DNA of 63,957 bases, counting the filler, from an uncultured bacterium (GTDB lineage: Bacteria; CAYJOG01), in NCBI GenBank assembly GCA_964371695.1. It is 6 parts of 6 records of this genome, joined end to end, with 100 filler letters (N's around TTAATTAATTAA, not from the genome) between each part and the next. Parts side by side here need not be neighbours in the genome. Positions count along the whole stretch, not along the records: positions 55,063 to 63,957 come from CAYJOG010000084.1; 5 more parts are not named here. The stretch is one strand, 5' to 3'. The translations under genes and the position numbers were made by a program. Below are positions 10,987 to 63,957 of this stretch, one piece after another. Position 1 is the stretch's first letter. Each line of letters opens with the position of its first letter. Under the pieces are notes generated by a model. That model was not told the DNA's origin and ran no database searches. It saw only the letters and a list, made by a program, of their open reading frames with translations.

Positions 10987-11086
10987 NNNNNNNNNNNNNN
11001 NNNNNNNNNNNNNNNNNNNNNNNNNNNNNNTTAATTAATTAANNNNNNNNNNNNNNNNNNNNNNNNNNNNNNNNNNNNNNNNNNNN
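10987..11086. other. Artificial contig linker
   Basis: N44-TTAATTAATTAA-N44, stops in all six frames. Confidence 0.99.
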
Positions 11087-22036: not shown

Positions 22037-22136
22037 NNNNNNNNNNNNNNNNNNNNNNNNNNNNNNNNNNNNNNNNNNNNTTAATTAATTAANNNNNNNN
22101 NNNNNNNNNNNNNNNNNNNNNNNNNNNNNNNNNNNN
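22037..22136. other. Artificial contig linker
   Basis: N44-TTAATTAATTAA-N44. Confidence 0.99.
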
Positions 22137-33060: not shown

Positions 33061-33160
33061 NNNNNNNNNNNNNNNNNNNNNNNNNNNNNNNNNNNNNNNN
33101 NNNNTTAATTAATTAANNNNNNNNNNNNNNNNNNNNNNNNNNNNNNNNNNNNNNNNNNNN
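33061..33160. other. Artificial contig linker
   Basis: N44-TTAATTAATTAA-N44. Confidence 0.99.
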
Positions 33161-44057: not shown

Positions 44058-44157
44058 NNNNNNNNNNNNNNNNNNNNNNNNNNNNNNNNNNNNNNNNNNN
44101 NTTAATTAATTAANNNNNNNNNNNNNNNNNNNNNNNNNNNNNNNNNNNNNNNNNNNN
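44058..44157. other. Artificial contig linker
   Basis: N44-TTAATTAATTAA-N44. Confidence 0.99.
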
Positions 44158-54962: not shown

Positions 54963-55062
54963 NNNNNNNNNNNNNNNNNNNNNNNNNNNNNNNNNNNNNN
55001 NNNNNNTTAATTAATTAANNNNNNNNNNNNNNNNNNNNNNNNNNNNNNNNNNNNNNNNNNNN
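54963..55062. other. Artificial contig linker
   Basis: N44-TTAATTAATTAA-N44. Confidence 0.99.
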
Positions 55063-55389
55063 GTGGCGTCCATGCTGGGGCTGATCATGCAGCGCAAGAG
55101 CGGCGGTGTGCGTTATTTCGTGGATGGGTATTACCTGGGCCTGACGCCGGGGGACAAGGAGCTTTGGTATCAGAGCATTCTGGACCCCTCTCAGGAGGGT
55201 GTGGTTTTCCTGCGTCACGCGCCGGTGGTGAAGGATGGCCGCCTGCTGGTGGCCCTGGGTGACATCGCGCCCTATCTGGGGTTGAAACTGTCCTATGACA
55301 AATCCCGGCGGCACCTGGCCATCACGGTGGATCAGGTGATTTCCACCTTTAGTCCGGGGCCACGTTTTCAGGGTGTATTCGGTTATTGA
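55063..55389 (+). CDS. Copper-amine-oxidase N-terminal (stalk)-like domain protein, 5' partial
   Basis: APVVKDGRLLVAL.DIA..LG.KLSYD...LAIT. Confidence 0.55.
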   Translation: MASMLGLIMQRKSGGVRYFVDGYYLGLTPGDKELWYQSILDPSQEGVVFLRHAPVVKDGRLLVALGDIAPYLGLKLSYDKSRRHLAITVDQVISTFSPGPRFQGVFGY

Positions 55390-55442
55390 AGTTGCTGGCT
55401 CTGCGCCTCATGCCGCCTGTTAACATGACCGCATGAATCCTG

Positions 55443-55784
55443 GAACTTATCTCAAAAATCCATCCGTGGATTTTTTCGGACGCCGGTTCCGGGGCTTTGC
55501 CCCGGCCCCAAGCGCGAAAATCTGTGGGTTTTCAACCCTACGATTTTCGGTGCAGGCCATCCTGGCCTGCCAGCAGCCATCTCAGAGCCTTTTTATAAAG
55601 TCCGTCCTGGACTTTATAAACGCACCGCCAGCGGGGGCAAAGCCCCCTCGGCGGGCAAAAACCTCAGTGTTTTCAACACTTCGGCTTTTGGAGCGGGCCA
55701 TCCATGGCCCGCAAGAGCCTGTTTCTGTTTCACCATGTTTCACATGGCGCAATTTGGAAACAGGCTCTCAAGGGTATTTTTGAG

Positions 55785-55792
<8 letters not shown>
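55443..55792 (-). mobile_element. MITE family C containing nested family B copy
   Basis: Ends GAACTTATCTCAAAAAT / ATTTTTGAGATGGCTGC; its terminal hairpin GCAGCCATCTCA..TGAGATGGCTGC is split by the inner element. Confidence 0.65.
55585..55767 (-). mobile_element. MITE family B copy 3 (183 bp, TSD TCA), inverted
   Basis: GAGCCT..AGGCTC ends; TCA at 55582-55584 and 55768-55770. Confidence 0.88.
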
Positions 55793-56846
<1,054 letters not shown>

Positions 56847-56849
56847 CCC

Positions 56850-57872
56850 ATGCGGCCCTTTCTCACAACCACCCGGATGGTGCTCATTCTGCTGATGATC
56901 CCGGCGTTTCTGTTGCTGGGCGCGCTGGGATTCATGGTGGTGGAAGGCTGGAGTTTTTCGGACAGCCTTTACATGTCGCTGATCACCCTCAGCACACTGG
57001 GGTTTTCAGAGGTGCATCCACTCTCGCCCGCTGGCCGGGGCGTGGTGGCGGTGGTGGTGCTGCTGAGTTTGGCGGCCATGCCGATTATCACCGCCATGGT
57101 CACCACCTGGTTTTTTGAAAACACCTTTGTGTCACTGTTCAAGGAGCGTCGCATGAAACGGCAACTGGACCACCTGGAAAAACACGTCATCATCTGCGGC
57201 CTGGGGCGCATGGGGCTGGAACTGGCCCAGCGGCTTGAAACCGCCGGAAAAACCTTTGTGGCCATTGAGCAGGACGGCAACATTCTGGAAGACGTGCGTC
57301 AGCATCACCCCCACTGGCTGGTGCTGCACGGCGACGCCACCAGCATGGAGTTGCTCAAGGACGCCCGTGTTGAAAAAGCCGAAACCCTGGTGGCTGCGCT
57401 TTCCAGCGACGCGGACAACCTCTATCTGCTGCTCAACGCCAAAGAGGTGGCCCCGCAGGCCCATCTCATCGCCCGTGCGGAATCCTCTACCGGTGCGCGG
57501 CGGTTGAGCCAACTGGGGGTCAACCACATCGTCACGCCGGTGGAAATCGGCGCACGGCGCATCAGCAATCTCATCCTTTCACCCCATCTGGTGGAGTTCA
57601 TGGACAACATCGCCAGCACCCACGGCCAGTCGGTGCAGATATACACCTATCAGGTGACAGAGGGCGACCGCCTGTGCGGCAAAGCCCTCCACGCGCTGGA
57701 AATTCCGCACCGTTCGCAGATGCTGGTGGTGAGCATCGAGTCCACCGAAGGCGCCATGCGTTTTGGCCCGCAGGCCGACACCGTGCTCAAAAACGGCGAC
57801 CGGCTTTTTCTCACCGGCCCTTCAGAGAACCTGCCGCTGTTTGAGTCGCTGGCACGGGGAGAAGGCGACTGA
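56850..57872 (+). CDS. Two-TM potassium channel with RCK/TrkA domains
   Basis: ITLSTLGFSEV pore, IICGLGRMG, GDAT, TrkA-C. Confidence 0.9.
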   Translation: MRPFLTTTRMVLILLMIPAFLLLGALGFMVVEGWSFSDSLYMSLITLSTLGFSEVHPLSPAGRGVVAVVVLLSLAAMPIITAMVTTWFFENTFVSLFKERRMKRQLDHLEKHVIICGLGRMGLELAQRLETAGKTFVAIEQDGNILEDVRQHHPHWLVLHGDATSMELLKDARVEKAETLVAALSSDADNLYLLLNAKEVAPQAHLIARAESSTGARRLSQLGVNHIVTPVEIGARRISNLILSPHLVEFMDNIASTHGQSVQIYTYQVTEGDRLCGKALHALEIPHRSQMLVVSIESTEGAMRFGPQADTVLKNGDRLFLTGPSENLPLFESLARGEGD

Positions 57873-57873
57873 C

Positions 57874-58533
57874 GTGACGCTGCTCGACGCTTTGGGGGAT
57901 TTTTCGCGCGTGGCCCTGTCGCTGGTGGCCATTGTGAATCCTTTGGGGGCGGTGCCTTTTTTCATCACGCTCACGCGGGACAAAACGGCGGCGGACCAGT
58001 TGCGTCTGGCGCGGGTGGCGGGTCAGTCGGTGTTGCTGATTCTGGTGTTCGCCGCGCTTATCGGAGAAGGTGTGCTGGACTTTTTTCACGTGAGCCTGCC
58101 CGCCTTTAGGGTGGGCGGGGGCGTGTTGCTCATGCTCATGGCCATTGACATGATGCACGCCCGGCAAAGCGGCGCGGTGCAGACGCCCGAAGAAATACAG
58201 GAAGCCAAAAATTACAGCGAAGTGGCGGTGGTGCCGCTGAGCATTCCGCTGCTTTCCGGGCCGGGGGCCATCAGCGCGGCGATTCTTTACAGCCACGAGG
58301 CGCGGGTGGCGGCTCAAGGTGAGGTGGCGCTGCGCCTGGGGCTTTTGCTGGGGGCCGCCGCCGTCACGGCGCTCATCACCTGGGTGAGCCTGCGCCTCGC
58401 GGTGCCCATTGGCAAACGTCTGGGGCAGAGCGGCATCAACATTGTGGCGCGCCTGATGGGCCTGCTGCTGGCGGCCATTGCGGTGGAGTTTGTCACCGCC
58501 GGTCTGCTCAAATTGTTTCCGGGTTTGGGGTAG
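57874..58533 (+). CDS. MarC family membrane protein
   Basis: IVNPLGAVPFF, VPLSIPLLSGPGAI, RLMGLLLAAIAV. Confidence 0.92.
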   Translation: MTLLDALGDFSRVALSLVAIVNPLGAVPFFITLTRDKTAADQLRLARVAGQSVLLILVFAALIGEGVLDFFHVSLPAFRVGGGVLLMLMAIDMMHARQSGAVQTPEEIQEAKNYSEVAVVPLSIPLLSGPGAISAAILYSHEARVAAQGEVALRLGLLLGAAAVTALITWVSLRLAVPIGKRLGQSGINIVARLMGLLLAAIAVEFVTAGLLKLFPGLG

Positions 58534-58555
58534 TTTTTGCCATTGACGCAGTGCC

Positions 58556-59311
58556 TTATTTCAACAGGCCATAACGCCGGGCCAGCTTTTTTTGCAGGGG
58601 GGAATACACGGCGGCCTCCAGGGCGATGCCCACCACCAGAATCAGCACAATGACCGACAACACGCGGGACATGTCGTTGAGGTCGCGGCCCATCTGCAAC
58701 TCATTGCCCAAACCCGGTGTGCTGAACAGCAGCTCCGCCGCCATCAGGGAGCGCCACGCCAGACTCCACGCCTGACGGTAACCACTCACAATGCCCACCA
58801 GCGCTGCGGGCAGCAGCACGTCGGTGGCCATGTGCAGGCCCCGCGCCCCCAGGTTGTGGCCCGCCCTGAGCAGTAGGGGCGGCACCTGACGGATGGCGTC
58901 GGCCACGCCCAGCGTGGCGGCCCCCAGCGCGCCCATGAACACCACAAACAGAATGGCCGTGTCGCCAAAACCAAACCACAACAACGACAGCGGCAGCCAG
59001 CAGATGCTGGGCATGGACCCCATGCCCGTCACCAGCACGCCAAAGGTGTTTTCAATCACCGGCAGGCGGGCGATGCCCACCCCCAGCGCGGTGCCCACCA
59101 CAAGCGCAATGCCGTAACCCGCCAGCAGGCGCTTGAGGCTCAGCAGCACCGCCAGGGGATAGGACCCCTCCATGAAACCGTCCCGAAAGGTGAGCGAGAT
59201 GTCCCTGAGGGGCGGAAACAGATAGGGGGGCAGGCTGCCAAAGCGGGCCACGGCCTCCCACACCAGGGCCAGCAGCAGAAAAAACACAGCGGCCTGAGCG
59301 GCTTTTTTCAT
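58556..59311 (-). CDS. ABC permease (SsuC/TauC/NitT family)
   Basis: YLFPP, SLKRL..GY, PSICWLP, AWRSLMAAEL. Confidence 0.92.
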   Translation of the reverse strand: MKKAAQAAVFFLLLALVWEAVARFGSLPPYLFPPLRDISLTFRDGFMEGSYPLAVLLSLKRLLAGYGIALVVGTALGVGIARLPVIENTFGVLVTGMGSMPSICWLPLSLLWFGFGDTAILFVVFMGALGAATLGVADAIRQVPPLLLRAGHNLGARGLHMATDVLLPAALVGIVSGYRQAWSLAWRSLMAAELLFSTPGLGNELQMGRDLNDMSRVLSVIVLILVVGIALEAAVYSPLQKKLARRYGLLK

Positions 59312-60393
59312 CAGGGGCCTCCTGCGGCGCGCACCGCCTGGGCCGGAAAGGCGCGGGGCGTGTTGGCGGCCCTGGTGAGTTCGGGCAGCACCTGATGGGT
59401 CCAGTGGTCGCTTTCGTCGGTGCCGTTGGGGCGTGGGGCGTTGCGGCCCAGGTCAAACGAAGCCTGCAAGCCGCCGCCGGGGCGCATCACGAGAATCCTG
59501 TCGGCCAGCCACACCGCCTCGCGCACGTCGTGGGTGATGAACACCACGGCTTTTTCGGTCTGGCGGGTGAGGTTCAGCAGGTCGTCATAAAGCGCCTGTT
59601 TGGTGAGGGCATCCAGGGCGGCAAAAGGCTCATCCATCAGCAGCAGTTCCGGATCCAACACCAGGGCGCGGGCCAGGGCCACCCGCTGGCGCATGCCGCC
59701 GGAAAGATGATGAATGGGGTGATTCTCAAAGCCCGACAGCCCCACGCGGCCCAGGAAGTCCTGGGCCAGCTCCAGCCGCGCCCGTTTGCTGATAGGGTGA
59801 TAACGCAGGCCAAAGGCCACGTTGTCGATGGCCGAGAGCCAGGGGAAAAGCCCCAGTTCCTGAAACAGCATGACGGTGTGGGGCAGGGGGCCGCCGCCGG
59901 GACCACAGAGGGTGCCCGCGTCGGGTTTTTCAAAACCGGCGATGAGGTTGAGCAGGGTGCTTTTGCCGCAGCCGCTTGGCCCCAGCAGCACCAGAAACTC
60001 ACCCTTTTTCAGGTCCAGGGAAAAATCGTTGAGCGCCGTGTGGGTGGCGCCGCCAAAAACAAAATGTTTGCTCAGGTTTTGCAGCCGCAATACGGGTGTT
60101 TCCGGGTCGTCGGCCTTCACGCGCCTGAGCACCAGTTTCCATTCCTCTTTGGGATGCTGAACATGAGACTGAAGCTCCACCGTCAGGCCGTGCCGCTCGG
60201 CGAAAAAAGGCACGGTTTCTTCCACCACCGGCAGGTGATCGGTGAGCACCACCATCACGCCGCCTTCTTGCATGGCCTCGGTGGCTTTTTTCACCCGCAC
60301 CAGACTGGTGGGGCACACCTCGCCGCGAATGTCCAGAATCTGGGCGTTGGGGTCAAAGGGCGTGGGGGCGGCAGACTTGTAAAAAGGCTTCAT
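59311..60393 (-). CDS. ABC ATPase (SsuB/TauB-like) with N-terminal TusA-like sulfur-carrier domain
   Basis: LDIRGEVCPTSLVRVKK...VLTD TusA-like segment, then GPSGCGKS, LSGGMRQR, LLMDEPF in one frame. Confidence 0.9.
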   Translation of the reverse strand: MKPFYKSAAPTPFDPNAQILDIRGEVCPTSLVRVKKATEAMQEGGVMVVLTDHLPVVEETVPFFAERHGLTVELQSHVQHPKEEWKLVLRRVKADDPETPVLRLQNLSKHFVFGGATHTALNDFSLDLKKGEFLVLLGPSGCGKSTLLNLIAGFEKPDAGTLCGPGGGPLPHTVMLFQELGLFPWLSAIDNVAFGLRYHPISKRARLELAQDFLGRVGLSGFENHPIHHLSGGMRQRVALARALVLDPELLLMDEPFAALDALTKQALYDDLLNLTRQTEKAVVFITHDVREAVWLADRILVMRPGGGLQASFDLGRNAPRPNGTDESDHWTHQVLPELTRAANTPRAFPAQAVRAAGGP

Positions 60394-61442
60394 GGCGTTT
60401 TCCTTTTCTGACCGGTGATGTTTTTTTGTGTTTTTTGTGTCACGGCGTTCAGCCAGCGCAGATCAAAGATGCCTTTCAGGGGATAAGGATGTCGGCCCAG
60501 AAACCCCAGCGCTGCAGCATCAGCAGCGTTTCTTGTCACGGCGGCGGCCATGGGTTGAAAGGTGAAAGAGAGCCTTTTCCATGCGCTGTTGAATATCTCG
60601 GCAGAGAGTGGTTTTCCGGTGTCCAGGGCCAGTTGCCGGTTGGTGCGTTGTTGGGCCGCCTGGGGGTGGGTTTTGATCCAGCGGATGGTGCGGACATGGG
60701 TGCTCACCAGCGTCCGGGTGCTGCGGGGGCGGCGGCGGATGAACTCCTGCGTGGCCACCAGAAGCGTGGTGGGATACACCCCGCCGGACCAGTGGGCGGA
60801 TTCCTCAAACAGCACCTTGCCCCCGGCCTGTTGCGTGAGGCGGCTCACCCAGGGTTCCACCACCCAGGCGCCGTCCAGATATTTTGTGCCGAAGGCGGCC
60901 ATCATGTCGGGGCCTTCCAGCGTGCGCACCATCAGGTTGGGCAGGTAGCCCTGTTTTTTGAGCCACAGGCGCAGGGCCACGTCCTGTGTGTTGCCGGTTT
61001 GCACGCTGGCGAAACGTTTGTTTTTCAAATCCTCTTTTCGGGCGCGGGCCAAGTGGGGTTGCACCACCATGGCCGCGCCGCCGGCGCAGGCCCCGGCCAG
61101 AATATGGATGGCCTTGCCCCGGCTGCGGACCCAGGCATTGATGGCGGGGCTGGGGCCCACATAGGCCACGTCCACGGCGCGGGCAAACAGGGCCTCCACA
61201 ATGGCCGGGCCGCCGCTGAAGACTTTCCATTCCACCGGGACATTGCCCAGGGCTTTTTCAAAAGCCCGTTGCTGCTGGGCCACCAGGGCGGGGGCGTGGG
61301 TGAGCGTGGCCAGACGGGCGATGCGGATGGGGGCTGGTTTGGCCTGGGCCGCAGCGGGCCGGGGCAGGAAAAGCGCCGCGAAAATCAGCCACACCGGCAG
61401 GTGGCGGCTGAAAAAGTAAATATCGGATTTGGTCGGTTTCAT
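60390..61442 (-). CDS. ABC substrate-binding protein (SsuA/aliphatic sulfonate-like)
   Basis: LTHAPAL, AYVGPSPAIN, GNTQDVALR, VEPW, YPTT. Confidence 0.9.
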   Translation of the reverse strand: MKPTKSDIYFFSRHLPVWLIFAALFLPRPAAAQAKPAPIRIARLATLTHAPALVAQQQRAFEKALGNVPVEWKVFSGGPAIVEALFARAVDVAYVGPSPAINAWVRSRGKAIHILAGACAGGAAMVVQPHLARARKEDLKNKRFASVQTGNTQDVALRLWLKKQGYLPNLMVRTLEGPDMMAAFGTKYLDGAWVVEPWVSRLTQQAGGKVLFEESAHWSGGVYPTTLLVATQEFIRRRPRSTRTLVSTHVRTIRWIKTHPQAAQQRTNRQLALDTGKPLSAEIFNSAWKRLSFTFQPMAAAVTRNAADAAALGFLGRHPYPLKGIFDLRWLNAVTQKTQKNITGQKRKTP

Positions 61443-61455
61443 TTTTTTGCAATGG

Positions 61456-61541
61456 AAAAACGCACCAAAAGGCTCCCCTCTGGCGGCTCCCCTGACTCTT
61501 GTTGGCGCTGGTGCGTATCAGCGCGCAACCACCGGGAAGCC
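61456..61541 (-). promoter_or_regulatory. Putative attenuator with mutually exclusive pairings
   Basis: ACGCACCA(61516-61509) pairs with TGGTGCGT+TTTT(61467-61456); GGCTTCCC-GGTGGTT(61541-61527) pairs with AGCCGCC..GGGGAGCC(61488-61471). Confidence 0.55.
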
Positions 61542-61586
61542 CCGTTGGGCGCAACAGGCGTTGCAACAACAGGTCACCGGCATCAT
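61518..61586 (-). CDS. Polycysteine leader peptide MMPVTCCCNACCAQRGFPVVAR
   Basis: 22-aa ORF with 5 Cys codons in 7, ending 75 nt upstream of the sulfur ABC operon. Confidence 0.7.
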   Translation of the reverse strand: MMPVTCCCNACCAQRGFPVVAR

Positions 61587-61592
61587 GGGGGC

Positions 61593-61622
61593 ATTGTGAG
61601 TGCCGCTGGCGGGGATTGTCAA
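61593..61622 (-). promoter_or_regulatory. Sigma70-like promoter TTGACA-N18-CACAAT placing +1 at the leader ATG
   Basis: Consensus -35 at 61622-61617; -10 at 61598-61593; 6 nt to ATG 61586; no SD. Confidence 0.6.
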
Positions 61623-61624
61623 GT

Positions 61625-61891
61625 TAGAGCATTTTCGGAAATGGTAGAGCAAAAGGGGGGGGGGTCGCCTCACCCCTTTTTTGGGGGGGGGCGGAAGGAT
61701 TTGGCGTCTGGGGCCAAATTTTACGGGTGTGGGGTTGACACAAGAAACAAAAGCCTTATTCGGTTTTTTTGCTTTTGAATAAACCCCTCACCCGGCCTTC
61801 GGCCTCCCTCTCCCCATTAAAGGGGAGAGGGGGGGGGCATGGTCTTTGGCTGCACCAAGAGGAGTACTCCATCAATTCCGAAAATGCTCTA
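61625..61891. mobile_element. MITE with TIR TAGAGCATTTTCGGAA containing a CCCTCTCCC hairpin
   Basis: 16-bp perfect TIR; same right end also at ~33255-33271. Confidence 0.75.
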
Positions 61892-61914
61892 ACAGGGTGT
61901 TTATCAACACCCTG

Positions 61915-63957
61915 CTAACGGGGCATCGGTCGATTTTCCGGCAGGTCTTCGGGATAAACCGCGCCGGTTTCTTTTTTCGTGGTGTTCAGGATTTTTTCCA
62001 GCCAGGTCTCTTTGGGGGCAAACCGCTGGGCGGCGTCTACATAAGCCACACCCCCGGCAAAGTTTTTTTCACTCAGGGCATTCTTGAACTGGTAAACCAT
62101 GCGGTAATTGATGTAGGCCCGGTGACTCTGCGCCGCCATGCGTCGCCATTTTTTCCGCTCAAGCCGGGAGGGGGCGTTTTGGGATAACCATTGGGCCGAT
62201 TCATAGGCCTGGGCGGTGAGAAGGTTTTCCTCGGTAGAGCGCTGGGCCAGTTCCAGGGCTTTCTTTTTCATGCCCAGGGCGGTCAGGGTGTTCAGCCATT
62301 CCGTGTCGGCAAAATCGGCGGTGGTGCGGGCGATTTTTCGGGCGGTGTTGCGGTGGCCCAGGGCAAAGTGCGACAAGACGGTTTCATACTGGTAAATGTC
62401 TTTGTAGGCAGGGAGTTTGCCCAGTTCTTTGAGGGCTTTCAGGCTCTGTCGTGGCCTGCCCGTGATGCGATACCACCGCGACACAAACGCATTGCCTTCG
62501 CCACGGGTCTGGCGCGAGAGCATTTGCATTTCTTTGTCCATGCGCGGTCTCAGGCCGGGGTGGTTGAACTGCGGCAGGTAATAGGAGCCTTCGTTCAGGC
62601 AGGGGCAGAACAGTTCGTAACCCGGCAGGTCTGGGGCTTTGGCCTTGGGCACGGCCACAAAATTGTGGATGTCGAAATACACCACCTTGAAGGGGCCATC
62701 TGCCGGGAAAAAGGAATAATGCATGGCCCGTGGGCTGGTCACCGGCATGACCACCAGTTTCACGCCATATTTTTTGATCAGCCTGCGGAAATGAGCCGGG
62801 TCTTTGGTGACATCAAAATAATCCTGATAAAACTTGTCGCTGAAAGCGAAACGCCCATCCATGAAGGTTTTGAGCCTAGGGTAATAACGAAAGATGAACC
62901 AGCCGCCGTGGCCGTATTCGTTATAGAGCCTGCCGTGGAGTTTGTGCTTGTCTACAAAGGCCATGGCCTGCACGGGGTAGTGTTGTTTTTCGTTGAGCGC
63001 GAGATTCCACGTGGCGGGTTTGACCTGCCAAACCGCCACCGCCGCCAGCACCAGGGCCGCCAGCCGGGGCAACAGGGCCAGACGGCTGGGCAAAAGCGCC
63101 TCGCCCTGAAAAGCAGAAAGCGACAGCAGCGAAATGGGCATGCTCAGCACCGCCAACAGCCACAAAAAACGCACGTGCTGGTGACCCATATAAAGCACCA
63201 CGCCCAGCACGGCGGCGTCTGAAAGCAGGCCCAACACCGATCGCAGGGTGTGCCACCATGCCTCTGTGGCGGGCAGGGTTTGGCTGAACCGCCGCCCGGC
63301 CTGGGCGGTGTTGAGCGCCGAAATGCCCAGCGCCACCACCGAGCACACCAGAAACCCCGCCACGGTGGGAGAGACTTCCAGCAGAGTGGCGGATCTGAAC
63401 TCCATCACAAACTGCAACACCACCGATTTTTTGTGGGCCAGCAGGAAGGTGAAAATTTTAGGCCCCCAGGGATTGATGCACGAAGCCACGATCAGCCCCA
63501 GCACACCGGCGGATCTTTTCAGCAGGTTCGAGAACGGCTCGCCCGACAGGCTCCAGTGGCGGAAAACCCACCAGCCCGACAGCAGGATGCCCACAAAAAA
63601 ATAACCGTGCAGGTTGACCCACAGGATCTGCAACAGCCACAGGGGCAGCCAGTCTTTCGCGGTCAGGGGATTTTTGATGAGCAATCGGGCAGCGAAAAGC
63701 GCCACCAGCAACTGGCTGAAAAGCTCTGGTCGTTCACCAAAGCGGTATCGCAAAAAGGCCACCAGCACCAGCAAAAACACCAGCGCCGCAGCAGGCTCGC
63801 GCAACTTGTTCACCGCCACGCGGAACCAGAGCGCAAACGCCCCCACCACCAGCACCGCCCGCAGCAGATAAATGCCCCAGATGTCCAGGGTGCGGTAGAG
63901 GAGGTAAAAAGTGACCTGCGACAGCCACTCGAATACAAACCAGGGGTGGTTTGGCTC
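61915..63957 (-). CDS. Multi-TM membrane protein (GT-C-like glycosyltransferase candidate), 5' partial
   Basis: W..EWL, ERPELFS, LWVNLHG, INPWG, TFMDGR motifs; frame open to window end. Confidence 0.7.
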   Translation of the reverse strand, partial: EPNHPWFVFEWLSQVTFYLLYRTLDIWGIYLLRAVLVVGAFALWFRVAVNKLREPAAALVFLLVLVAFLRYRFGERPELFSQLLVALFAARLLIKNPLTAKDWLPLWLLQILWVNLHGYFFVGILLSGWWVFRHWSLSGEPFSNLLKRSAGVLGLIVASCINPWGPKIFTFLLAHKKSVVLQFVMEFRSATLLEVSPTVAGFLVCSVVALGISALNTAQAGRRFSQTLPATEAWWHTLRSVLGLLSDAAVLGVVLYMGHQHVRFLWLLAVLSMPISLLSLSAFQGEALLPSRLALLPRLAALVLAAVAVWQVKPATWNLALNEKQHYPVQAMAFVDKHKLHGRLYNEYGHGGWFIFRYYPRLKTFMDGRFAFSDKFYQDYFDVTKDPAHFRRLIKKYGVKLVVMPVTSPRAMHYSFFPADGPFKVVYFDIHNFVAVPKAKAPDLPGYELFCPCLNEGSYYLPQFNHPGLRPRMDKEMQMLSRQTRGEGNAFVSRWYRITGRPRQSLKALKELGKLPAYKDIYQYETVLSHFALGHRNTARKIARTTADFADTEWLNTLTALGMKKKALELAQRSTEENLLTAQAYESAQWLSQNAPSRLERKKWRRMAAQSHRAYINYRMVYQFKNALSEKNFAGGVAYVDAAQRFAPKETWLEKILNTTKKETGAVYPEDLPENRPMPR

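Follow-up and report, generated by a model that had tools for sequence, protein, structure and literature searches.

A TusA-like domain fused to the ATPase of a NitT/TauT-family ABC importer in an uncultured bacterium: a possible link between sulfur uptake and sulfur handling

We analysed a 63,957-nucleotide stretch of DNA (the window, filler included) from an uncultured bacterium (GenBank assembly GCA_964371695.1), in which a three-gene operon encodes an ATP-binding cassette (ABC) importer whose ATPase carries a TusA-like domain at its N-terminus. The source is a metagenome-assembled genome (MAG) of 3.4 Mb in 672 contigs, with 83% completeness and 61% G+C. The window consists of separate contigs of this MAG joined end to end, so that genes on opposite sides of a spacer are not genome neighbours; the joints (10987-11086, 22037-22136, 33061-33160, 44058-44157 and 54963-55062) are paired 44-N spacers with 12 bases between them. 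The operon lies on one contig of 8,895 bp (window 55063-63957). All three genes are on the minus strand, in the order periplasmic substrate-binding protein (60390..61442, 350 aa), TusA-ABC ATPase fusion (59311..60393, 360 aa) and ABC permease (58556..59311, 251 aa), with the fused ATPase in the middle. The TGA of the binding-protein gene overlaps the ATG of the ATPase gene (ATGA), and the ATPase stop TGA and the permease ATG share one nucleotide, the A (TGATG). Because the stop and start codons overlap, the three genes are read as one translationally coupled operon.

The preliminary description of this DNA placed a TusA-like domain in frame ahead of an intact SsuB/TauB-like ATPase, and this holds. 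The 360-aa frame is open, with no stop between the domains, and both PF01206 (TusA) and PF00005 (ABC_tran) are found in it; alignment and AlphaFold2 (AF2) agree with this assignment. The nucleotide-binding domain, of the NitT/TauT type, covers residues 121-258 (59620..60033, minus strand; PF00005, E 4.6e-31). In our conservation alignment of 44 fused TusA-ABC ATPase proteins, the window protein included, the ATPase motifs are invariant: Walker A (G138-T146), Q178, the signature (S231-Q236), Walker B (D254-E255) and H288. The best NCBIfam match of the ATPase is TauB (208.1 bits versus 357), followed by SsuB (162.9 versus 395), with many importer ATPases close behind, and none of the equivalog cut-offs is reached. 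A Foldseek search with the ATPase core found the short NrtD/CmpD-type chains of NrtBCD/CmpBCD closest (template-modelling score, TMt, 0.79-0.86). An identity as SaoA, SaoP or SaoX, names that the literature appears to use for a selenoprotein-linked ABC system, was rejected, with NCBIfam scores far under the cut-offs. The binding protein is SsuA/TauA/NrtA-like by Pfam (NMT1_2, E 1.7e-30) and NCBIfam (SsuA_fam, 161.3 bits, cut-off 163.5), and its nearest solved structure is TauA (6ssy, E 1.7e-13). The permease matches BPD_transp_1 (Pfam, E 5.9e-18). A complex prediction of the permease with the ATPase core (residues 101-360) and the TusA domain (residues 1-100), run without controls, reached 0.13 against a mark of 0.32, a score that weighs neither for nor against such an assembly.

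The TusA domain spans residues 19-90 (60124..60339, minus strand) and matches PF01206 with 47.4 bits (E 1.7e-12), above the gathering cut-off of 28.6; the N-terminal 105 aa by themselves score 51.1 bits. When a profile of eight fused N-termini was searched against the sequences of the Protein Data Bank (PDB), TM0983 came first (1jdq, 2.2e-11), the S. thermophila YeeE-YeeD fusion second (8k1r, 5.5e-9; 8j4c, 7.1e-9), and YhhP/TusA thereafter (1dcj, 2.5e-7; E. coli TusA 3lvj, 2.8e-7). AF2 modelled the whole 360-aa fusion with a predicted local distance difference test score (pLDDT) of 83.4 and a predicted template-modelling score (pTM) of 0.79, and the domain alone, together with 40 stand-alone relatives, with a pLDDT of 80.6. 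Both models have the same beta-alpha-beta-alpha-beta-beta order (E18-21, H29-39, E46-51, H54-67, E70-78, E84-91), with Cys27-Pro28 directly preceding helix 1. Foldseek placed the domain model nearest to YeeD in 8j4c/8k1r (E 3.4e-5; root-mean-square deviation 2.2 A over 76 columns; 28% identity), then to SirA-like 3hz7 (TMt 0.78) and E. coli TusA 3lvk from the IscS-TusA complex (TMt 0.80). By hidden Markov model (HMM), profile and predicted fold, the N-terminal domain is a genuine member of the TusA family. The earlier analogy to YeeD and YeeE is apt as well, YeeD being the best structural match and the second in the profile search after TM0983.

The motif of the window protein reads LDIRGEVCPTS and includes Cys27, the predicted sulfur-carrying cysteine (codon 60313..60315, minus strand), with VLTD at residues 48-52. 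This assignment comes from the alignment and the profile, in which Cys27 aligns with the CPxP-motif cysteine of TM0983 and YeeD. Asp21, Cys27, Pro28, Leu31, Asp52, Glu59 and Trp85 are invariant in all 44 fused proteins. Since the clades of these proteins are merely 36-41% identical to one another, the invariance suggests selection on the reactive site, beyond the fold alone. The preliminary description pointed out that CPTS is not the canonical CPxP, and the motif itself was given correctly: the window protein has CPTS, its clade (clade A, below) CPTS or CPAS, and the other fused clades CPHP or CPYP. The departure is less telling than it seemed. In the nearest stand-alone relatives the motif is mostly CPYT or CPFT; the lack of a second proline is therefore a trait of this branch of the family and no defect.

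It is highly improbable that the fusion is an artefact, whether of misassembly, of a stop codon that was lost or of a misplaced start. The fragmentation of the source MAG and the joined contigs of the window would leave room for such an error; however, when we mapped Logan contigs of four runs to 58556-61650, contigs of all four runs, from two studies, bridged the domain junction (60080-60120). Three of them, X1 (59808-60178), X2 (59319-60340) and X3 (60067-60272), show 0 differences each; these runs belong to one study and may include the source sample. In run X5, from the second study and labelled groundwater, a piece covering 60062-60220 bridges the junction with 20 differences and no gap, and represents a relative of about 90% identity. 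No indel is listed between 59525 and 60531 in the bridging contigs. The databases contain two proteins with 100% identity to the window product, P0121 and P0122; P0121 occurs on 9 contigs, of which the longest is 105 kb. The protein also aligns end to end with 43 other fused proteins, and its start and stop codons overlap the neighbouring genes. The fusion is real.

The same design recurs in the 44 aligned proteins, which fall into three clades. Among the 120 best of 8,000 scored homologues, seven carry both PF01206 and PF00005: P0001 (96% identity), P0002 (71%), P0003 (64%) and P0014-P0017 (41-44%). A search with residues 1-125 gave three matches among 195 candidates, all three fused, and one with the N-terminus of P0014 gave 34 matches among 82 candidates, 33 of them with both domains. 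The clades are clade A, which is the window's and comprises 3 clusters; clade B, with 33 of these 34 matches; and a Nitrospirota cluster of 29 members. Organism labels of the fused proteins include Nitrospirota/Nitrospiria, Thermodesulfobacteriota, Ca. Dadabacteria and 'bacterium HR37', and the window's own lineage comes from sediment and groundwater. In the databases these proteins are named 'NitT/TauT family transport system ATP-binding protein', 'ATP-binding cassette domain-containing protein' or 'Bicarbonate transport ATP-binding protein CmpD'. Among the papers listed by our literature search, which covered neither subscription journals nor the InterPro architecture tables, none was found on a TusA-ABC ATPase fusion. 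The fusion is apparently undescribed, with its proteins public under generic names.

The architecture is rare. Of 401 genomes drawn from across the bacterial families, 86 have a match to a profile of the fused N-termini (E <= 1e-7), and, per the matches inspected, the N-terminal fusion to an ABC ATPase occurs only in the source genome. Seven translations were inspected, namely six matches with frames of at least 290 aa and the top scorer G077 (262 aa); frames of about 200 aa were left out. The genomes compared are related to the source genome at domain level only, with no close kin among them. A phmmer search of 1.84 billion representatives with the 105-aa domain gave 36 matches at E <= 1e-3: one fused clade-A protein (P0003), 34 proteins of 72-233 aa and one of 742 aa. 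The ESM Atlas search returned plain ABC ATPase clusters only. A metagenome scan with the clade-A alignment returned stand-alone TusA proteins only and no close clade-A relative (best 44% identity). A scan of genome contigs with the whole protein kept 80 loci, and none of the seven with the longest N-terminal overhang, which were inspected, was fused. A seeming split form in G030, matching from query residue 31, proved to be a plain 280-aa ATPase adjoining cysK.

To place the fused proteins, we built a quick maximum-likelihood tree of the ATPase core with 72 rows: 4 of clade A, 13 of clade B, 52 TusA-less proteins (every second of 103) and 3 NrtC-like proteins, which were trimmed to 290 aa and served as outgroup. 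The fused proteins fall into three well-supported groups, and the deep branches between the groups are poorly supported. A tree forcing all 17 fused rows together lies 7.3 log-likelihood units above the quick free tree, and the approximately unbiased (AU) test gives p-AU 0.626. A single old fusion is thus not rejected, and it may perhaps be the better reading. The spread and conservation of the architecture suggest that the fusion is old and maintained.

The uncultured deltaproteobacterium MAG G404 is the sole clade-B genome with a readable context and contains three copies of the gene, 60-71% identical to P0014. On all three contigs, an NMO/FabK-like flavoenzyme is followed by the binding protein, the TusA-ATPase and the permease; the last three genes stand in the same order as in the window. 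For the clade-B binding protein, the SsuA_fam score is 190.4, above the cut-off of 163.5. The flavoenzyme (L194:5587-6681, plus strand; L195:4065-5153, minus strand) is a FabK-like flavin mononucleotide enzyme that matches NMO (PF03060) and scores 194 bits versus 453 for TIGR03151; its gene immediately precedes that of the binding protein in all three copies, and it may be a functional partner. A Porin_O_P anion porin lies downstream of the permease on the long contig (L194). The three loci, on contigs C2, C14 and C13 (L194, L195 and L196), are near-duplicates. In the C13 copy a TAG separates the TusA and ATPase parts (85-aa and 248-aa open reading frames, ORFs), and in the C14 copy the binding-protein gene is in two ORFs. 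These triplicate loci may be strain variants, products of decay or assembly errors.

The nearest stand-alone relatives of the domain in the metagenome scan, which used the patterns LDIRGEVC and TDHLPVVE and is biased accordingly, are 76-109 aa long and 33-44% identical over their full length, with shorter segments reaching 56%. By Pfam, a ThiF/MoeZ-type gene stands next to the TusA gene in 7 of 12 stand-alone loci, or in 8 when L177, read by eye, is counted; other neighbours in these loci are DsrE, JAB and PALP enzymes, ATP sulfurylase, and a fusion of DUF169 with 3'-phosphoadenosine-5'-phosphosulfate (PAPS) reductase. The loci in which a stand-alone LDIRGEVCP(Y/F)T TusA adjoins ThiF/MoeZ-type genes (L097, L098, L103, L114, L145, L150, L170 and L177) look like sulfur-carrier-protein (thiocarboxylate) assimilation clusters. 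The best genome match, in G077, has a DsrE-like ORF on one side, a ThiF-like ORF on the other and a JAB-like ORF close by, as read by eye from the translations. These are sulfur-relay settings. The only other TusA of the source genome (C155:656-856, minus strand; 62 bits) is stand-alone with a CPIN motif, and its neighbours are uninformative on its role.

These settings lend some colour to the idea that the domain is an ordinary cytoplasmic sulfur-relay protein, feeding for example a ThiF/MoeZ-type enzyme, DsrE or a cysteine synthase, and became fused to the ATPase only for joint synthesis under sulfur starvation or for recruitment of a downstream partner to the membrane, with no chemistry on the cargo at the transporter. 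We regard this as quite improbable. In its favour, the stand-alone relatives (33-44%) stand beside ThiF, JAB, DsrE, PALP, ATP sulfurylase and PAPS reductase genes, and the source genome encodes a DsrE-like protein and, besides the fusion, a single TusA. However, a short-linker fusion has been kept in three clades, which suggests that the domain needs to be close to the transporter. One would also expect a free carrier to split off again, yet only one possibly split copy was seen, the C13 copy of G404 with its single TAG.

TusA-like domains also occur in other fusions. In 2 of the 401 genomes, PstB-type ATPases carry a C-terminal TusA-like domain (L188:2894-3910, minus strand, in G312; L189:3003-4067, plus strand, in G007). 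They score 347.5 and 343.1 bits for TIGR00972 (cut-off 343.2) and 55.1 and 42.9 bits for TusA, and in both a glycine replaces the carrier cysteine (...KGTVGPDN...). These Cys-less proteins represent a separate, independent fusion to an ABC ATPase. Elsewhere, an assimilatory-type NIR_SIR reductase of about 800 aa carries a C-terminal TusA domain (L193:3087-5495, minus strand, in G257; L192:333-3452, plus strand, in G097); here the cysteine is kept, the TusA domain scores 69.9 bits, and in G097 a PAPS-reductase-like sequence follows right after a stop codon.

The PstB-type fusions provide the best support for the main rival reading, a regulatory sensor, in which Cys27, by becoming persulfidated or oxidised, would sense the sulfane-sulfur or redox state of the cell and throttle ATP hydrolysis by trans-inhibition without handling the cargo. 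We consider this somewhat unlikely. Extra domains on importer ATPases are usually regulatory, as in MetN, ModC, MalK and NrtC, and NrtC-type proteins of 560-590 aa occur among the homologues. The TusA-less homologues transport without the domain, and the full-length AF2 pTM is compatible with a fixed domain arrangement. On the other hand, the known regulatory domains are C-terminal, whereas the TusA domain is N-terminal; the Cys-Pro site and the acidic residues are invariant in 44 of 44 fused proteins, which suits catalysis at least equally; and the closest relatives of the domain are carrier-type proteins in sulfur-relay clusters, and YeeD. The accessory domains of other importer ATPases (MetN C2; the TOBE-type domains of ModC, MalK and CysA; the C-terminal NrtA-like domain of NrtC) likewise sit on the motor of an ABC importer, but they are C-terminal, ligand-binding and of other folds, whereas the domain described here is N-terminal with a sulfur-carrier fold.

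The genes around its TusA-less homologues tie the transporter family itself to sulfur assimilation. Among the loci gathered by the ATPase, 58 have a homologous binding protein and 68 a homologous permease; among the 45 best of each, non-self binding proteins are 36-41% and permeases 38-47% identical to those of the window, mostly in the same order. We annotated seven TusA-less loci, with neighbours scanned in all but L056, and read an eighth (L082) by eye. L041 has a PAPS reductase, cysK (457.6 bits, cut-off 351), a ThrC-like PALP enzyme and a ThiS-NIL protein. An Rrf2-family regulator stands directly upstream in three of the seven (L028, L029 and L037), L029 additionally having CbiX and MsrA, and L037 a SorA-like sulfite dehydrogenase (313 bits, under the cut-off). 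L066, from Streptomyces, has adenosine-5'-phosphosulfate (APS) kinase (cysC) and a CysN-like GTPase, and L068 has neighbours unrelated to sulfur. In L082, an Rrf2-like N-terminus and a cysK-like gene lie upstream.

What the importer carries can be narrowed to some extent by the source genome, where any absence is unproven at 83% completeness. In this assembly there is no match to a luciferase-like SsuD-type enzyme (PF00296), to TauD (PF02668) or to YeeE (PF04143). NIR_SIR reductases, one PAPS-reductase domain, one DsrE, one stand-alone TusA and a cysK/M-like gene (320.6 bits versus cut-off 344) are present. That no desulfonating oxygenase was found is a mild argument against the classical aerobic sulfonate route. 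The candidates left are thiosulfate, sulfite, another sulfur anion, or an oxygen-independent sulfonate route, and thiosulfate is merely one candidate among them.

A Cys-rich leader upstream of the operon had been proposed, and it is present as a minus-strand ORF of 22 codons (MMPVTCCCNACCAQRGFPVVAR, 61518..61586) with 5 Cys, three consecutive and then two, 76 nt upstream of the binding-protein gene. In front of it lies a sigma-70-like promoter (61593..61622, minus strand; TTGACA, 18 nt spacer, CACAAT) with 10/12 consensus matches, the only promoter-like site in 58300-62000 (shuffles, mean 0.6). The -10 hexamer ends 6 nt (61592-61587) ahead of the leader ATG at 61586, and given this spacing the transcript may be leaderless. 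A terminator-like hairpin with a U run (61453..61485, minus strand) lies shortly before the binding-protein gene begins and is made of a 10-pair stem with 5 G-C pairs and the tail CGTTTTTCCA. The relative in run X5 covers the leader at about 91% identity. Such leader ORFs are rare: of 14,764 ATG mini-ORFs with lengths of 12-40 aa in the whole 3.4-Mb genome, only 5 carry 5 Cys in a span of 8 residues. The other poly-Cys mini-ORF inspected, on contig C58, proved to be the beginning of a long gene read out of frame and no second leader. Rfam gave no riboswitch or leader family match at the locus, and the stability of the leader-region RNA fold is not significant relative to shuffles (z-score -1.63).

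A study of mycobacteria describes polycysteine leaderless short ORFs as cysteine-responsive attenuators (bioRxiv 10.1101/834739). As there, a short ORF with consecutive cysteines heads a cysteine-related operon, and the spacing here suggests a leaderless start. In contrast, the mycobacterial mechanism sequesters the ribosome-binding site (bioRxiv 10.1101/834739), whereas here a terminator-like hairpin and a U run are found, and the lineages differ. From the likeness to these attenuators, we infer that the operon is induced when cysteine is scarce.

Taken together, the reading we tentatively favour, at a little short of an even chance, is that of a cysteine-starvation-induced importer of a sulfur compound, with the TusA cysteine capturing or processing the cargo, the part that YeeD plays for YeeE. 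In this scheme, cysteine scarcity would switch the importer on through the poly-cysteine leader ORF, and the NitT/TauT-family three-gene ABC importer would bring in a sulfur source for cysteine synthesis, perhaps thiosulfate or another anion with sulfane or oxidised sulfur. In the cytoplasm, Cys27 would be the first group to accept or process the imported sulfur species. It would react with the cargo at the exit of the permease, keep the sulfur bound in a persulfide or thiosulfonate adduct, and deliver it to assimilation. The model is YeeD, which is essential for thiosulfate uptake by the unrelated channel YeeE and has a conserved cysteine that is catalytic for thiosulfate decomposition and was found modified in several forms; YeeE and YeeD form a single polypeptide in some Corynebacterium species (PMC11073785).

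The position of the domain may also matter. The ATPase domain of ABC exporters is connected to the membrane domain through its N-terminus, and an appendage at this end should therefore lie near the membrane side. The boldest form of the favoured scheme, in which the importer covalently captures its cargo and transport and the first assimilation step become one event, a sulfur group translocation, seems to us rather unlikely. If it were true, the cytoplasm would at no time contain free reactive sulfur, and ATP hydrolysis could be tuned by feedback from the state of the cysteine.

Several points weigh against a sulfur-capturing importer. Clade A lacks the second proline of CPxP (CPTS/CPAS). The domain falls short of two NCBIfam models, with 21.4 bits for YeeD/TsuB (NF041048, cut-off 147.5) and 20.6 for the TusA equivalog (cut-off 78). 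Many close homologues of the transporter have no TusA domain and evidently function all the same, and the Cys-less TusA fold on PstB-type ATPases makes a non-catalytic role on ABC ATPases possible. No sulfur acceptor gene adjoins the operon in the window, and the neighbours of the fusion in G404 are not recognisable sulfur enzymes. Finally, the loading of sulfur on Cys27 and the identity of the cargo are themselves proposals drawn by analogy.

Compared with known systems, the importer proposed here resembles YeeE/YeeD (TsuA/TsuB) in having a TusA-family protein with one essential cysteine on the cytoplasmic side of a sulfur-anion importer, and in that the two can be fused. Unlike that system, the partner is an ATP-driven, binding-protein-dependent ABC importer and no YeeE channel; the fusion is at the N-terminus of the ATPase, whereas theirs is with the membrane protein, and the motif is CPTS. 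SsuABC and TauABC consist of the same three components, and the genes of the operon are arranged as in tauABC; its binding protein is nearest to TauA/SsuA and its ATPase to TauB, and induction under sulfur limitation is plausible here too. However, the TauB and SsuB cut-offs are missed, the SsuA_fam score of the binding protein falls just short of its cut-off, SsuD and TauD were not found in the source genome, and SsuB and TauB are without a TusA domain. Stand-alone TusA/SirA-like carriers (E. coli TusA with IscS; those of DsrE and ThiF/MoeZ clusters) share the fold, the Cys-Pro site and the Pfam family, and the closest share LDIRGEVCP, often without the second proline too; they are free proteins of about 80 aa, whereas the window domain is covalently tied to a transporter motor.

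A pyridoxal-phosphate (PLP) enzyme of the D-cysteine desulfhydrase / D-cysteate sulfo-lyase (CuyA) / XcbE family is encoded at 55704-56846 (plus strand), below every equivalog cut-off (top match CuyA, 130 bits versus 450). It lies 1.7 kb from the transporter on the opposite strand, and because two unrelated genes, for a TrkA-type K+ channel and MarC, intervene, we do not count it in the system. Directly upstream of the leader region, a large membrane protein (61915-63957, minus strand; at least 680 aa, truncated by the contig end) is without a Pfam match at E <= 0.001.

In summary, the fusion combines known kinds of parts, namely a NitT/TauT importer, a TusA-type uptake partner and a mycobacterial-style poly-Cys leader. 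On the usual view of ABC importers, the cargo is released unchanged and metabolism follows afterwards; the fusion suggests that sulfur handling begins at the transporter itself. With a TusA domain on the motor, kept in several uncultured lineages, the YeeE-YeeD principle of uptake that depends on a TusA-type partner would apply to the largest class of primary importers as well, and one cysteine and a three-gene operon would offer a testable handle on the safe uptake of reactive sulfur species. It also flags for re-annotation dozens of entries now named 'ABC transporter ATP-binding protein' or 'CmpD'.

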